Shown one piece after another: positions 22,989 to 54,626 of a stretch of 64,000 bases of DNA. The first letter of the stretch is position 1. Each line of letters begins with the position of its first letter. The position numbers and the translations under genes were made by a program. The notes below the pieces were generated by a model, which ran no database searches, was not told the origin of the DNA, and was given only the letters and a program-made list of their open reading frames with translations. The stretch comes from an uncultured delta proteobacterium (GTDB taxonomy: Bacteria; Desulfobacterota; RBG-13-43-22): assembly GCA_963743305.1 (NCBI GenBank), contig CAVUPH010000009.1, forward strand, positions 1-64,000. The letters run 5' to 3'.

Positions 22989-23313
22989 CTCAGAATTTGT
23001 TCATCCCCCGGGCCGCCCGGCTGATGGTCCGGATAGCCGCAGGCAGCACTCGTATTGCTCGCCTATCTATTCAGGCATATCAATAATTAGGGCCGTCTGT
23101 CAAACAAAGAAAACCGGAACCAGAGGCCTTATCGGTAAAAAATTTGAACACGATTATTGTCCTTAACAATTTAACCCTCAATGGCTTATAATCGGGTTGG
23201 CTTTTTATCGAAACCACGAATTGATCTAATGACGGGGCGTTTCAGGCCGGGTGGGTCCCGGGAGGCCTTCTCCCGGAGGAGGAAGAGAATTCTAACTAAG
23301 CGGAGGTTCCCTG

Positions 23314-23868
23314 ATGTTTTTAATCACTATTCTGGTACTGATCGTTGTCCTGGGTTTCCTGGTAATCGGCCCCTACAACACCCTGGTCCGGGGAAGGAAC
23401 GAGGTCAAGAACGCCTGGAGTTCGATCGACGTCCAGCTCAAGCGGCGCTATGATCTGATTCCCAATTTAATAGAAACGGTTAAGGGATATGCGGGCCACG
23501 AAAAAAAGACCCTGGAGGCGGTGGTCCAGGCAAGGCAGCAGGCCGTTAACTTTAGCGGGGGAGTGGAGGAACGGGCCCAGGTCGAAAATGTCCTGACCTC
23601 GGCACTGCGTTCGCTCCTGGCCGTAGCCGAGGCCTACCCGGACCTCAAGGCCAATCAAAACTTCCTGGCCCTCCAGGAGGAACTGTCCAACACCGAGAAC
23701 AAAATCGGCTTCTCGCGGCAGTACTATAACGACGCCGCCATGCGCTACAGGAACCGGGTGGAGATGTTCCCCAGCAATATCGTTGCCAATATTTTTAGTT
23801 TTCAGGCCGAGCCATTTTTTCAAGTGGAGGCCGCCGCGGAACGCGTGGCTCCTCAAGTGAAATTTTAG
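23314..23868 (+). CDS. lemA: LemA family protein
   Basis: YN.LV..AWSSIDVQLKRRYDLIPNL; EAYPDLKANQNF; SRQYYN; FPSNIVA. Confidence 0.96.
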   Translation: MFLITILVLIVVLGFLVIGPYNTLVRGRNEVKNAWSSIDVQLKRRYDLIPNLIETVKGYAGHEKKTLEAVVQARQQAVNFSGGVEERAQVENVLTSALRSLLAVAEAYPDLKANQNFLALQEELSNTENKIGFSRQYYNDAAMRYRNRVEMFPSNIVANIFSFQAEPFFQVEAAAERVAPQVKF

Positions 23869-23885
23869 CCAGGAAAGGGATCCCC

Positions 23886-24155
23886 ATGGTAGAGACGCTG
23901 CAGAATATCGGTTGGTCGGTGATTTTTTCAGTAATCGGGGGCCTGATCGGGATGGCGCTGGTGATCGCCTCATCGCTGATCCTGCCGGCGCTTATCGATC
24001 GCCTGACCCCCAACATCGACGAACACAAGGAAATTGTCCGCGGCAATACCGCGGTGGGGGAATACTACGGGCGAGTCGTGGGCTCCGCCATCCTGGGGGT
24101 GAGCATCGTGATAGCCGCCGCGGTATTGGGCGGGATCCTCGCCGCCTTGCACTAG
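23886..24155 (+). CDS. Small two-TM protein, DUF350-like
   Basis: DRLTPNID..EIVRGNTAVG pattern between two hydrophobic helices. Confidence 0.7.
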   Translation: MVETLQNIGWSVIFSVIGGLIGMALVIASSLILPALIDRLTPNIDEHKEIVRGNTAVGEYYGRVVGSAILGVSIVIAAAVLGGILAALH

Positions 24156-24202
24156 ATTCTTACATCCATTGTTCTGAGAATTTGTCTCGACGAAAGGTGC
24201 CT

Positions 24203-26831
24203 ATGAAACGGCTTCTCGGACTGACGGCGTTGTTTCTCCTTTTGCTCAGTCCCGCCCTCTCCTGGTCCCGAGGCGGGGGCGGCTGCCTGGAAGAGGGCAC
24301 CCCGATTCGGACCCCAAAGGGATCGGTGGCCATTGAAAAGCTGGCGGTGGGCGACCCGGTCTGGAGCATAACCGCCGGCCAACTGCGGGAGGCCAAAGTC
24401 CGGGCGGTTATCCGGGTGGACCCCGAAGAGGTCCTGGAGATATCCGCCGGGGAGACCCGGTTGCGGGTTACCCCCGAACATCCGCTGCTGGTGGCCCCCG
24501 GAGACGTATCGCCAGGCTGGTTTCCTTTTTCCCGGAGAAACGGTTTCCCTGTTCAGGAACGGAGCGCTAAAGGACGAGGCGGTCCGGTCCATTCAACGCC
24601 AACCGGCGAAACGCCCGGCTTATAATCTTTTGGTCAGCCCGGGCGGGACCTTTCTTTCCGGGGATCTGGTCCTGCACAATAAGGGTTGCTTCCTGCCCGA
24701 CAGCCCGATCCTGCGGGCGGACGGCACGGAGACGCTGATCAGCGCCGTGAAACCGGGCGATGCCCTTTGGGCTTTCACGCCGGACGGACACCTGGTACCC
24801 ACCCGCACCCTATCCGTCATTCGCCTCGAAGCGGACGAGTATTTCCTGATGAAAACCGATCGGACCACGCTGCGAGTCACCGGGGAGCATCCCTTTTACA
24901 TCGGCCGGGGGACTTTCAAGACGGTCGAAGCCCTCCAGCCGGGCGACACCGTCCTGGCTTTTGACGGGAAATGGCTGGCCGAACAGCATATTGTCTCCCT
25001 GGAGCGAGTCCGGGAACGGGTCCCGGTCTATAATCTCCAAACCGATCGGCCTCATACCTTTTTCGTCAGCGGGGTGGCTGTCCATAATAAGGGCGGAGGC
25101 TGTTTCCCGGCCGGAACCGGGATTGCCACTCCCCGGGGAGAGCGGTTCATCGAAGAATTGGCTGCCGGAGACGAAGTCTTTTCCGTTGACCCGGAAGGGC
25201 GGACGGTTCGGAGCCGGGTAAAAACCATCCTGGTGAATAAAAGCCCCCTGCTGAAGATAAAGACCGCCGGGGGTTTTCTGCTGGCCACCGAGGACCACCC
25301 GATACGCGTGGGGAAAGATAGGTTTCGTCCGGCAGGGGATCTCCACCCGGGAGAGCAAATCACCCGCTGGAATGAGGGCCGCCTGGCCGCCGAAAGGGTT
25401 CGAGGGATAGATTACGGGCTTAAGGAAGGACTCGTCTTTAATCTCGAAGTTACCGGTCCCCATACCTTCATTGCCGGGGGCGTCGTCGTTCACAATAAGG
25501 GAGGGGGAAGCTTTCGCAGTTCGAGCTCACACTCTTCTTCCTCGAGGAGCGGAAACGCCTCCTGGTTTGAGACGTTGATTTCCTTTATATTTTTCGTGAT
25601 TTTTTTTGTCCTTCTCCTGGTGGTCTTGATCGCCGTCGCCTCCAAGTCTTCCAAGAGAAAGAGCGAAAACCTCGACTTCGTCTACAACCGTAGGCAGATC
25701 GATCCCAAGGCGCAGAAGACCGAGAAACTGCTCGCCTTTCTGAGCCGGCAGGATTCCTCCGTCTCCCCGGAAACGCTGCGCGATCAGGCGAAGGCCACGT
25801 TCCTCCAACTGCAGGAATGCTGGGGTAAAAGGGAATACGGACCCATGGGGGCGCTGCTGGTACCGGACCTCTATACCCAGCACACGGCCCAGCTCCAGGG
25901 CTTGGCCCGGAACCACGAGATCAATCGGATCGACGATCTGACAGTGGAACGAATCGATCTGGTGAATGTCCGCTATACCGAAAAGGGGAATCAACGGGAG
26001 TTCACCGCTCTGATTACCGCTTCGGCCCGGGATTATTATCTGGACGACCGCTCGGGAAAATTCCTCCGGGGCGATCGGACCCCGGCGCGTTTTCAGGAAT
26101 TCTGGACCTTCCAGTGGATGAACGGACGCTGGCTGCTGCGGGAGATCGAGCAGGCGGGGGAAGCGGATATCCTCAAGGATGACAACTTCGCCGAGATGCT
26201 GACCGAAGAAACGCTGAAGGGGATTTACGGGGAAGCGGCTCTCCCTGAAGGGCAGGCGGGACCTTGGCTGGAAAAAGAGGTGGAGCAGAAGGCCGGCCGC
26301 ATCGACCGATTGATCGCCTTTCTATCCCAGACCGACAAGCTCTGGAATCGAAACCGGATGCTCGAACGGGCTCGTCAGGTCTTCCTGGATGTCTACCTGG
26401 CCCGGGAAACCGGCGATCCGGCCCGGGTCGCGGCCGACGACCTCTTTCCAAAGGTGGCCGAGGATTTGAAGACCCAGGTGGCTTACTGGAAGAATGAGGG
26501 CGTCGTCGTCGAATACCGGAATCTTTGTGTGCGCAAGGTAGAACTGCTTCTGGTTCGCAATTACGGGGACAATACCCGGGATGAATATACGGTACGGGTC
26601 AGCGCGCATGCCCAGCGGATGATCCGCAAAGGTGATCAGTCCTTGAGCGCCCAGGACTACGTCACGCCCTTCGAGGAATACTGGACTTTCGGCCGCCTGG
26701 AGGGACAGTGGAAACTGAAGGAAGTATTGCCTCCGGGCCAGGGGAAAAAGGCCGTTGACCTGGAAAACGTGGATGAAGACAGCAGCCCCGGACAGCTCCA
26801 ATGGTACTACCGGCAGCCCCGCGCCCTTTGA
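24203..26831 (+). CDS. Signal peptide + three tandem Hint (BIL/intein-like) domains + TM + two Tim44-like domains; one +1 frameshift near 24500
   Basis: Hint1 24284-24680, Hint2 24687-25088, Hint3 25101-25496, each Cys1, TxxH, (Y/F)NL and terminal HN; Tim44-like FQEFWTF..WLLREI and FEEYWTF..WKLKEV. Confidence 0.88.
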
Positions 26832-26953
26832 GGCGGGAGAAGGGTACTATCCGGAGAACTGTTTTAAAAACCCAGCCGGTAGCCCTGAGAACCGTAAGGG
26901 GTGCGGCGTGAGAAACGCCAAACGAGAGGAACCGAACCATTGATTGTTCCCAA

Positions 26954-27673
26954 TCATTTCCTTATTGTCGGTCGGCTACCCCCAACCATTTTTCCAGCAG
27001 GGCCGGGGTCGTCGGCCAACGCGGCGCTGGAGCCAAAATGAACGATCCTTCCCCGCTCCAGTATTATCGCTTTATCCGTCAGCGGGAGTATTTGGCGGGC
27101 ATGCTGCTCGACCAGGACTACCGCCAGGCTGCCGGATTGCATCATGGTTTGGACCGCGGCCAGCACCTCCTGGACGACAATGGGTGCCAGCCCCTCCAGC
27201 GGTTCGTCGAGCAACAGGAGCAGAGGATTAAGGACCAAGGCCCGGCCGATGGCTAGCATTTGCTGTTCGCCCCCTGAAAGTTGATTGCCGAAATTGCGCC
27301 GTGCCGCCTGCAGACGCGGGAAAAGTTTGAACACCTCTCCCGGCGTCCAGGGACCCGGACGGGCCACAGCCGTCAGGTTTTCCTCGACGGTCAGCGAAGA
27401 AAAGATATCCCGTTCCTGGGGAACCCAGCCTAACCCGGCCGCGGCCCGCTTATGACTGGGGACCTGGGTAATTTCCCGACCGCCAAACCAGATCTGTCCG
27501 CCGTGGACCTGGGTGGCGCCCATGAGGGTCGCCACCAGGGTGGTTTTGCCCATGCCGTTGCGGCCGAGAACGGCCACCGCCTCGCCCTCGGCCAGGGTCA
27601 ACGACAGGCCCGAAAGCACCACCGACTGACCATAACCGGCGGAAAGGTCCTGGAGGCGTAACAAGTCACCCAC
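26954..27673 (-). CDS. livF: Branched-chain amino acid-type ABC ATPase
   Basis: GRNGMGKT, LSGGEQQMLAIGRAL, LLDEP. Confidence 0.9.
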   Translation of the reverse strand: MGDLLRLQDLSAGYGQSVVLSGLSLTLAEGEAVAVLGRNGMGKTTLVATLMGATQVHGGQIWFGGREITQVPSHKRAAAGLGWVPQERDIFSSLTVEENLTAVARPGPWTPGEVFKLFPRLQAARRNFGNQLSGGEQQMLAIGRALVLNPLLLLLDEPLEGLAPIVVQEVLAAVQTMMQSGSLAVVLVEQHARQILPLTDKAIILERGRIVHFGSSAALADDPGPAGKMVGGSRPTIRK

Positions 27674-53232: not shown

Positions 53233-54626
53233 ATGTTTTCAAAGGCAATGCCCAAAACTATAGCGGAAGAAAATATATTTCCGGCAAAAACGATACCGGA
53301 AGAATTAAATGAACCCGGCAGGACTGCGGACTTGTTGGATTGGCTATTTGGGATTTTCATCCTGGCCGGCCTGGGGATCCTGGTCTATACCAGCCTCACC
53401 GGAGGCCTGCTTTCCCCGATCATCCGGACCGCCAAAGCCGATCCCCGGGCTCACCCTGTTGGTCAGGCCCAGCCTGCTCTTGGCTGCCATGGGCAGCCTC
53501 TTTGTTGTTTTCCGGACCATGCTTTGGTTCCAATACCGGCCTTTCCCGTCGGCGAACTTTCAGAACGCCCCGTCGCTCACCGTCATCATCCCGGCCTATA
53601 ATGAAGGTCCGATGGTTGAAAAGTCCATCCATTCGGTCTTGGCGGCCGATTACCCCCGGGATCGACTGGAAGTTTTTGTGGTGGACGACGGGAGCAAGGA
53701 TGATACCTGGATGCATATCAAGCGGGCCGTGAACAAACCACCCGGACCAGGTCACGGCTATCCGCTTTCCGGTCAACCGGGGTAAAAGGGAAGCCCTGGC
53801 GGAAGCCTTTCTTAAGGCTCGGGGAGAAGTGGTTATTACTATTGATTCCGACAGCGTCATTACCAAGGGGACGCTGCTCTCCATGGCCGGTCCCTTTCAT
53901 GACCCGAAGGTGGGCGCCGTGGCCGGAAAGGTCAAGGCCTACAATCGGCAGCAGGGCCTCATCCCCCGCATGTTGCACGTTCGCTACGTCTTGTCCTTTG
54001 ATTTCCTGCGGGCGGTGCAATCAACCTATCGGACGGTATATTGCTGTCCGGGGGCCCTGGCGGGCTACCGGGTCGAGGTGGTCCGGAGGGTCCTGGAATC
54101 CTGGCGGAGGCAAACCTTTCTAGGGGTTCCCTGTACCTATGGTGAAGACCGGGCCTTGACCAATTTTATCCTGGCTCAAGGGTACGATGCCGTCTACCAG
54201 GGATCAGCCGAGGTATACACGATTGTTCCCTGGACGTATAAGCGACTTTACCGGATGTACCTCCGTTGGGATCGAAGTTATATCCGGGAGACCATCCATT
54301 TTTTCCGTATCGTCTGGAAGCGGCCCTTCTGGTCCTGTTTGGTTTCGCTGTTCGATATGATCATCAACCAACCTCCGCTATCCGGTGGGTGGGCCGCTTT
54401 GGGGATGTTGGTTTACCTTTCCTTTCAGGACCCGACCACCATTCTCCGCGTCTTCCTGGCCATCGGTATTTTTTCGTTTTTAAATACCTTATACTATGTT
54501 TACTGCGAGCGGCGGGGAGACTTCTTTTACGGGATTTTTTATGCCTATTTCTCCTTCCTGACCCTGTTCTGGATCTTCCCCTATGCCCTGCTGACCGTCC
54601 GTTCGAAGTCCTGGATGACCCGTTGA
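53233..54626 (+). CDS. GT2 processive glycosyltransferase, hyaluronan synthase/NodC-like; at least two frameshifts (near 53450, 53740)
   Basis: IIPAYNE, VDDGSKD, GKREAL, IDSDS, CCPG, GEDRALTN, LRW; C-terminal TMs and WMTR. Confidence 0.85.

Follow-up and report, generated by a model that had tools for sequence, protein, structure and literature searches.

At positions 24203–26831 of contig CAVUPH010000009.1, from an uncultured delta proteobacterium (assembly GCA_963743305.1), lies a gene whose product combines a putative signal peptide, three consecutive intein-like Hint domains, a single transmembrane (TM) helix and two Tim44-like domains (Table 1). The window referred to throughout is the whole stretch of DNA that was analysed, namely the first 64,000 nucleotides of this contig on the forward strand. 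An earlier note on this DNA, made from the sequence alone, had drawn attention to this succession of features, including the Gly-rich stretch behind the signal peptide, and all of them were found again at the same positions.

Table 1. Features of the Hint–Tim44 gene and of the genes upstream of it (window coordinates)
Feature	Position	Strand	Basis or remark
LemA family gene, lineage-restricted neighbour	23314..23868	+	Pfam LemA, 5.5e-60
DUF350 small membrane protein, 89 aa, upstream partner (candidate)	23886..24155	+	Pfam DUF350, 1.8e-06
Whole Hint–Tim44 gene, from signal peptide through three Hints, linker and TM helix to the two Tim44 domains; in two frames	24203..26831	+	ATG at 24203
Putative Sec-type signal peptide MKRLLGLTALFLLLLSPALSWS	24203..24268	+	Visual inspection: KR, a hydrophobic core and small -3/-1 residues
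RGGGG N-terminal motif, site of Hint insertion	24269..24283	+	R23 and G27 invariant; G25 and G26 at least 90 %
Hint1 (type a: CLEEGT..TPEH..YNL..LHN), 132 aa, frameshift inside	24284..24680	+	Length excludes the extra base
Extra G, GGA[G]ACG, +1 frame shift	24503..24503	+	DNA alignment with same-genus G002; 15/15 homologues intact
Lys-Gly linker, Hint1/Hint2	24681..24686	+	K160 and G161 invariant
Hint2 (type b: CFLPDSPIL..TGEH..YNL..AVHN), 134 aa	24687..25088	+	Pfam; model (pLDDT ~90, all-beta); Foldseek
KGGG linker, Hint2/Hint3	25089..25100	+	Sequence; alignment of 18 proteins
Hint3 (type c: CFPAGT..TEDH..FNL..VVHN), 132 aa	25101..25496	+	Pfam; PDB 2lwy, E 3e-09; model; Foldseek
Gly/Ser-rich linker KGGGSFRSSSSHSSSS..	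25497..25571	+	Predicted disordered: pLDDT <50, residues 292–314 of P0001
Single TM helix, then KSSKRK (positive side, taken as cytoplasmic)	25572..25646	+	Model helix 315–339; sequence
Tim44-like domain 1	25740..26153	+	59.5 bits (cut-off 29.6), Pfam; model
Tim44-like domain 2	26325..26723	+	37.2 bits, Pfam; model

The frame that opens at 24203 reads MKRLLGLTALFLLLLSPALSWS-RGGGG-C...TPEH, and after HPLLVAPG the next frame carries on with YRQAGFLFPGE...AYNLLVSPGGTFLSGDLVLHN-KG-CFLPDS. The called open reading frame (ORF) at 24630..26831 (733 aa) holds Hint2, the KGGG linker, Hint3, KGGGSFRSSSSHSSSS, a hydrophobic helix with KSSKRK behind it and a C-terminal part of about 390 residues. In this region homologues read ..LSWA-RGGGG. 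Excision of the three Hints in silico leaves SRGGGG-KG-KGGG-KGGGSF, the product that had been claimed from inspection. Sequence identity is 28 % between Hint2 and Hint3 and 32 % between the N-terminal half of Hint1 and Hint2, and the only DNA-level repeat across the Hints is a 38-mer coding for ..HNKG with a period of 408 nt. The three Hints are thus old paralogues and not an assembly duplication, in agreement with the divergence already noticed by eye.

Searches with the PT-HINT, Hint_2 and Tim44 profiles, which the earlier note had proposed together with structure prediction, all matched the gene in Pfam (1.4e-13, 2.2e-10 and 1.1e-24, the last in two stretches), as did Hint (3.3e-13) and Intein_splicing (1.9e-10). 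The N-terminal half of Hint1 alone matched Hint_2 (5.2e-08), and the NCBIfam models intein_Nterm and intein_Cterm exceeded their cut-offs. Tim44 (PF04280) scored 87.6 bits over its two stretches, against a gathering score of 29.6, which places the protein in that family; the Tim44/TimA adaptor subfamily (NF033779, Tim44_TimA_adap) scored 41.9 bits, below the NCBIfam cut-off of 80. The closest sequence match of Hint3 in the PDB was 2lwy, a 'bacterial intein-like domain' aligned end to end (E 3e-09), and the same type of search with the Tim44 part returned no relatives.

An AlphaFold2 model was obtained from the 733-aa ORF with an alignment of 76 sequences; it covers Hint2 and Hint3, with the frameshifted Hint1 outside. 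Mean pLDDT was 83.4 and close to 90 in both Hints. The model consists of two all-beta Hints (residues 20–153 and 158–289), a disordered stretch (292–314), a long helix (315–339) and two alpha+beta domains. Foldseek ranked BIL2 from the BUBL1 locus of Tetrahymena first in the PDB (E 7e-12, TMt 0.81), followed by mini-inteins, a Clostridium thermocellum bacterial intein-like (BIL) domain and the Hedgehog Hint, with an overall range of E 7e-12 to 1e-07 and TMt 0.8–0.87. Rank 48 was occupied by a large-subunit chain of the mouse mitoribosome, which we take to be the Tim44-like mL45. Taken together, the profile matches and the predicted structure confirm that the repeats adopt the Hint fold and are closest to BIL domains.

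All three Hints carry the residues of type-A BIL domains, as had been claimed for them: Cys1 (at 24284, 24687 and 25101), a block-B TxxH motif (TPEH, TGEH and TEDH), a terminal His-Asn (LHN, VHN and VHN) and no Cys, Ser or Thr at +1, where Lys stands at each of the three junctions. With Lys in this place, the C-extein Cys, Ser or Thr of a canonical class 1 intein is missing. Conservation was assessed in an alignment of 18 three-Hint proteins that were 34–69 % identical to the first (mean column identity 50 %). Invariant in 18 of 18 were all three Cys1, the block-B Thr and His, the terminal His-Asn, the +1 Lys, the Gly that precedes each Cys and, within RGGGG, the R and the final G. In these alignments the pattern of invariance is what would be expected of active autoprocessing domains and not of inert repeats.

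Type-A BIL domains are described in two reviews (PMC4031507; PMC7765530) as having a C-terminal His-Asn and no +1 nucleophile and as acting through an N-terminal thioester and Asn cyclisation; the freed amine can ligate the flanks via the thioester, and cleavage products predominate. The reading favoured here, with a probability of roughly 0.55, is that the three Hints are type-A BIL-like domains which, once exported, would excise themselves so that the N-terminus begins K/R-GGG. The N-terminus would be exported by the Sec signal peptide, and the Hints would fold outside. An N–S acyl shift at each Gly-Cys1 would then produce a thioester with the assistance of the block-B Thr-x-x-His, and the terminal Asn would cyclise with the assistance of the penultimate His and so cut each Hint at its C-terminal end. 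When the Hints leave, the membrane protein would keep a short Gly/Ser-rich periplasmic tail with a basic residue and a Gly run in front, starting KGGGSF.. in the case of cleavage and RGGGG-KG-KGGG-KGGGSF.. in the case of ligation through the alpha-amine. The KGGGSF.. tail would mimic the ARGGGG.. and ARAGGGRSGGF.. ends that signal peptidase gives to Hint-less relatives, and such mimicry of the R-GGG start is, by inference only, one explanation of the invariant Lys-Gly after each Hint. Positive residues follow the TM helix, so the Tim44 domains are placed inside; the protein would then be a bitopic inner-membrane protein with its Hint N-terminus outside, one TM segment and cytoplasmic Tim44 domains. 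In its mature form it would most likely work with the DUF350 membrane protein encoded directly upstream. Nothing was found in support of the further suggestion in the earlier note that this is a switch on a membrane-stress protein.

The extent of the family was investigated with the 775-aa reading of the gene as query. Among 8000 candidates scored, 943 proteins matched at an E cut-off of 0.001, and the best 120 of these all bear Hint and Tim44 Pfam labels; 35 of the 120 are 870–889 aa long and 70 are 1000–1039 aa long. Sequences were printed for 15 proteins. In these, every Hint starts with Cys after Gly and ends with His-Asn, which is followed by Lys-Gly; the first Hint comes after signal-A/G-RGGGG, and behind the last one stand KGG(G) and a Ser/Gly-rich stretch. 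The Hint types occur in a constant order: a (CLEEGT), b (CFLPDSPIL), c (CFPAGT) and d (CLPAGT). Homologues with differing numbers of Hints at the same GGG site, a search for which had been suggested, were indeed present. Forms with one, two, three, four, five and six Hints were all observed, among them a two-Hint protein of 743 aa, a five-Hint protein of 1147 aa and six-Hint proteins of 1264 and 1286 aa, and relatives without a Hint were found as well. The two six-Hint proteins (P0024, 1286 aa; P0072, 1264 aa) consist of three near-identical a-b pairs with junction contexts that are almost letter-identical. This points to a recent tandem amplification of the a-b pair as the probable origin of the six-Hint forms.

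A query with the Tim44 part added, among its best 120 matches, 12 complete one-Hint forms of about 610 aa. The same 120 matches include 13 proteins without a Hint; all of these begin within the TM segment or beyond it, which marks them as N-terminally truncated gene calls and not Hint-less orthologues. A profile-free exhaustive search of representatives at 50 % identity gave 1573 matches at E ≤0.001 and 143 at E ≤1e-30. In a further 149 representatives from that list, a crude motif count (HN, then K, R, S, G or A, then G) found one or more HN-x-G junctions in 68.

Thirty-nine loci were recovered from species-representative genomes, all of them metagenome-assembled genomes (MAGs), with titles that name more than 10 phyla. 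These titles include Deltaproteobacteria or Thermodesulfobacteriota, Syntrophales, Nitrospiraceae, Planctomycetota and Terriglobia; Verrucomicrobiota (Opitutaceae, Lacunisphaera and Oleiharenicola), Kiritimatiellia and Lentisphaerae; and Anaerolineales, Elusimicrobia, Riflebacteria, a gammaproteobacterial MAG, one Micrarchaeia MAG and one Peribacteria MAG. In loci from distant phyla, the C-terminal part showed 41–57 % identity over the best segment. The match in the MAG labelled Micrarchaeia archaeon (L057) is full length at 47 % identity, and that in the MAG labelled Candidatus Peribacteria (L061) covers the Hint part only at 36 %; binning contamination, transfer or Hint-only similarity could explain either. 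With hundreds of database proteins carrying one to six Hints and MAGs of more than 10 phyla among the sources, the architecture is a widespread family and not a one-off. Automatic database names such as 'Hint domain-containing protein' and 'TIM44-like domain-containing protein' are attached to members, and the family's sequences are therefore already in databases, with an architecture that is undescribed in the literature searched.

Variation in Hint number extends to close relatives. In the same genus, G001 (L018:1495-4533, minus strand) encodes an intact 1012-aa protein with four Hints of types a, b, c and d, and G002 (L021:195-3269) also has four Hints, a, b, c and d; the window has three (a, b and c) and lacks type d. 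On comparison of these sequences, whole Hint units are gained or lost cleanly at the repeated HNKGG(G) junction between close relatives, and recombination at this junction would be the means.

The Hints have a fixed place. Complete Hint-less relatives (P0321, P0363, P0319, P0296, P0318 and P0379) begin with signal-ARGG(GG) followed by Gly/Ser/Tyr-rich low complexity. A paralogue in the same genome (contig C15, L001:985-1947; 320 aa) also has no Hint and consists of a signal peptide, ARAGGGRSGGFRGSRSFS.., a Gly-rich stretch, a TM helix and a single Tim44 domain (143.5 bits); ahead of its TM helix it reads ..VLARAGGGRSGGFRGSRSFS... True Hint-less forms were found only among the more distant relatives, together with this paralogue. 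The shared signal-ARGGG start indicates that the Hints were inserted in, and are flanked by copies of, a conserved N-terminal motif. Two statements of the earlier note hold on this evidence: that Hint-less Tim44 proteins open with signal-R-GGG and a Gly/Ser-rich stretch, seen in the six relatives and the C15 paralogue, and that the Hints sit inside this motif in the exported Gly-rich N-terminus, ahead of the TM helix and two Tim44 domains. In some one-Hint relatives (P0325, P0326, P0331 and P0336), the Gly run ahead of Cys1 is enlarged to RAGGGGGGGGGGCF.. or RAGGGYGGGGYGGSCF.., which suggests that the N-extein is a variable poly-Gly tract.

Such an insertion site raises the question of whether the Hints are passengers, that is, intein-like elements without an endonuclease which multiplied by duplication where a Gly-rich site tolerated them, serve no purpose themselves and persist only because their activity is needed to free the host protein. 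Like inteins in their hosts, they are seated in the most conserved N-terminal motif; Hint-less relatives do without them, the six-Hint forms are near-identical (a-b)x3 duplications, and copy number varies inside one genus. However, at 132–134 aa the Hints have no homing endonuclease with which to spread, and the constant order of types a, b, c and d in the printed proteins implies long vertical retention. Clean loss of units does happen, as the three and four Hints within the genus show, yet every complete protein among the best 120 keeps at least one Hint. The missing endonuclease and the retention of Hints by all complete close relatives despite clean unit loss weaken the passenger explanation, which is considered unlikely.

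A polymorphic toxin, in which a PT-HINT domain releases a C-terminal toxin, was also considered and was rejected as scarcely credible. PT-HINT does score 51.7 bits against a cut-off of 27.7, and one family member (P0075) is named 'polymorphic toxin-type HINT domain-containing protein'. In this protein, however, the Hints are N-terminal, and the part behind them, a TM helix with two Tim44 domains, is conserved (41–57 %) and not hypervariable, and Pfam and NCBIfam searches of the gene returned no match to toxin families.

Several points weigh against self-removal after export. Self-processing is deduced from conserved residues, and the invariant +1 Lys is neither needed nor explained by a plain type-A mechanism. 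The two reviews conflict on ligation, with type-A BILs able to splice according to PMC4031507 and unable to ligate according to PMC7765530. That so many phyla keep one to six Hints would be strange if the domains were simply thrown away. Lastly, in the gene as assembled the signal peptide is joined to only 73 of the 132 residues of Hint1, and the remainder has no export signal.

The +1 Lys suggests a second use of the same thioester. In a Lys-directed splicing or conjugation, the side chain of this Lys, or a Lys or other amine of another molecule, would attack the Gly-Cys1 thioester and yield isopeptide-linked (branched or cross-linked) periplasmic products without ATP, each Hint serving as a single-use ligation charge. 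The Lys is invariant at the three junctions of the 18 aligned proteins and present at every junction of the 15 printed ones, the number of Hints ranges from one to six, and the top structural match is BIL2 of the Tetrahymena BUBL1 locus, for which its authors report an isopeptide bond to a Lys epsilon-amine and ATP-free conjugation of the N-extein (PMC8616854). Identity to BIL2 is, however, just 21–23 %, and likeness of fold is silent on the nucleophile used. The same paper places the BIL2 lysine in a folded ubiquitin-like C-extein and not at +1 (PMC8616854). In addition, the N-extein of Hint1 would be RGGGG only, and there are no known targets. Lys-directed chemistry is accordingly improbable for these Hints. 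A more specific proposal, that the array is an ATP-free periplasmic ligation device in which a Gly-ended peptide is passed to Lys and the Hint number (one to six) sets the number of shots, is a degree more doubtful again. If true, the array would be a bacterial, exported counterpart of Tetrahymena BIL2 lysine-directed splicing that builds branched or cross-linked N-terminal tails. Self-removal by type-A BIL-like Hints remains the preferred account of the family.

In the window, the gene as assembled leaves frame after residue 100 of 876. The shift near 24500 that the earlier note had recognised as splitting the gene was pinned to one extra base at 24503. The window DNA reads GCC CCC GGA, then the four bases GACG, then TAT; aligned to it, same-genus G002 has CCCCCGGA-ACGTAT where the window has CCCCCGGAGACGTAT, that is, CCCCCGGA[G]ACGTAT. 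At this site 15 of 15 homologues compared read intact through TPEHPxM/LxAPG(E/T)YRQAG. Programmed +1 frameshifting was considered for this position and dropped, since intact orthologues read straight across the site. The extra G is probably an assembly error, and an explanation other than error or recent pseudogene formation is very improbable. Public sequencing runs were searched for the locus; the best run contained 0.20 of sampled words, and in the contigs of four runs (85 % likeness) one contig stops at 24502 and the next begins at 24540, with none spanning 24503.

A real frameshift, by which the gene would be a recent pseudogene in this organism, is possible though somewhat doubtful. The extra G is not within a homopolymer run, and the rest of the window consists mostly of long intact ORFs (45 ORFs of at least 120 aa give 77 % coverage). 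Orthologues are broken in G002, G003 and G016 too, so the gene could be dispensable in the group. Yet past the shift there are 775 stop-free codons in which every catalytic residue is kept, and any inactivation would have to be very recent. A second split gene also lies in the window: a family-2 glycosyltransferase (53309-54623, +) made up of two overlapping ORFs in different frames, with positions 1–53 of the glycosyltransferase Pfam profile in ORF 53309-53782 and positions 52–167 in ORF 53733-54623. Of the relatives that match over the full length, four of six assemblies with at most 60 contigs carry a broken orthologue (G000, G002, G003 and G016; intact in G001 and G009), and none of five assemblies with at least 200 contigs does (G007, G011, G013, G015 and G017). 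Breaks that track the contig number of an assembly fit an effect of assembly method rather than biology. Three further frameshifts interrupt the G002 copy, and one lies within its T-rich TM segment.

Of the two genes directly upstream, DUF350 was the one found in distant genomes. In four distant loci (Lentisphaerae, Lacunisphaera, Planctomycetota and Elusimicrobia), DUF350 lies directly upstream on the same strand in 4/4 and LemA in 0/4, and the five DUF350 proteins are 52–66 % identical. When a degenerate pattern for the DUF350 loop motif was applied, with one match per locus, it was found upstream on the same strand in 24 of 39 species-representative loci and in 10 of 10 loci from relatives; among the 15 loci with no match are several that lack sequence upstream of the gene (L031, L033, L050 and L053). 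The LemA motif was found upstream in 7 of 39 and 4 of 10 loci, respectively, and those seven comprise six loci with delta proteobacterium, Deltaproteobacteria or Thermodesulfobacteriota in the title and one with Syntrophales. This DUF350 gene is the only one of its kind in the genome, with none of the partner type elsewhere. By these motif counts the widespread partner gene is DUF350 and not LemA, and a functional partnership between DUF350 and the Hint–Tim44 protein is suggested. A complex prediction for the two proteins returned a score of 0.00 and 'no answer', which speaks neither for nor against binding.

The interval between the DUF350 stop and the Hint–Tim44 start contains a dispersed palindromic repeat, represented by a 37-mer at 24153-24189. 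Twelve copies of the 37-mer with at most three mismatches were counted in the genome, the other copies lying in L005-L011. Seven of eight aligned copies extend over about 61 nt and have 22-nt inverted arms (TTAGATTCTTACATCCATTGTT / AACAATGGATGTAAGAATCTAA) around a 16-nt loop; the copy in the window has the left arm and loop only. Short contigs from soil metagenomes match the repeat stretch with unrelated flanks. In sequence it looks like a hairpin element of the REP (repetitive extragenic palindromic) or MITE (miniature inverted-repeat transposable element) kind. Scanning 23000-27200 against Rfam with an E limit of 0.1 gave no matches.

A literature search that covered few subscription journals turned up no publication on Tim44 proteins with Hint or intein domains, consistent with the earlier note, whose author did not know the architecture from the literature. 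Nor did the papers searched describe back-to-back arrays of one to six Hints with linkers of 2–4 residues at a fixed site in a conserved N-terminal motif, or the exported setting, the invariant +1 Lys and the pairing with DUF350. The module (a type-A BIL-like Hint) and the carrier (a Tim44 membrane protein) are each of an already known kind. Hint chemistry underlies protein splicing, Hedgehog lipidation and many protein-engineering tools. To our knowledge, no other protein module converts an ordinary peptide bond into a thioester unaided by cofactors. The family is a natural and strongly conserved case in which up to six Hints stand in series, probably outside the cytoplasm, each followed by an invariant Lys. 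Its study could show how adjoining Hint active sites act in series, whether the +1 Lys serves in splicing and what the DUF350/Tim44 membrane pair does. The copy in the window itself adds little because it is frameshifted; intact orthologues exist for experiments.

Among known systems, the type-A BIL of C. thermocellum (PDB 2lwy) is alike in Cys1, TxxH, His-Asn, a +1 position without Cys, Ser or Thr, a length of about 135 aa and the lack of an endonuclease, and it matched the model with a Foldseek E of 4.6e-09, TMt 0.82 and 30 % identity. One review describes BILs as residing in hypervariable regions of non-conserved proteins (PMC7765530). In contrast, the present Hints occupy a fixed site of a conserved protein. 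They also differ in forming back-to-back arrays of one to six with 2–4-residue linkers, in the invariant +1 Lys and -1 Gly, and in having a signal peptide ahead. BIL2 of the Tetrahymena thermophila BUBL1 locus (PDB 6y75 and 6tmm) is the top structural match and shares the repetition of BILs on one polypeptide. In the eukaryotic, cytoplasmic BUBL protein, however, each BIL is separated from the next by ubiquitin-like domains, whereas the present Hints are separated by 2–4 residues, bacterial and putatively exported, at 21–23 % identity.

Canonical mini-inteins (Npu DnaB, Ssp DnaB and Mtu RecA) resemble the Hints in fold (TMt 0.8–0.87), in Cys1, TxxH and His-Asn, in placement within a conserved host motif and in the existence of insert-free relatives. 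The present host, in contrast, is not a replication or repair protein, and its domains are putatively exported and in tandem; in the absence of a +1 Cys, Ser or Thr, the standard branched-ester step is impossible for them. The Hedgehog/Hog Hint (1at0; Foldseek E 1.3e-07, TMt 0.84) has a comparable Gly-Cys-Phe site (GG-CFPAGT in Hint3), a secreted context and a non-protein or non-standard nucleophile acting on the thioester. The present Hints differ from it in the lack of a sterol-recognition region and in having the useful part of the protein C-terminal instead of N-terminal. They end in His-Asn, so cleavage at the C-terminal side would be expected as well, unlike in the Hedgehog Hint. Finally, bacterial Tim44 membrane proteins (PF04280; COG 'predicted lipid-binding transport protein, Tim44 family') have the same front of signal-ARGGG, Gly/Ser-rich stretch and TM helix, and the present protein differs from them in bearing the Hint array.

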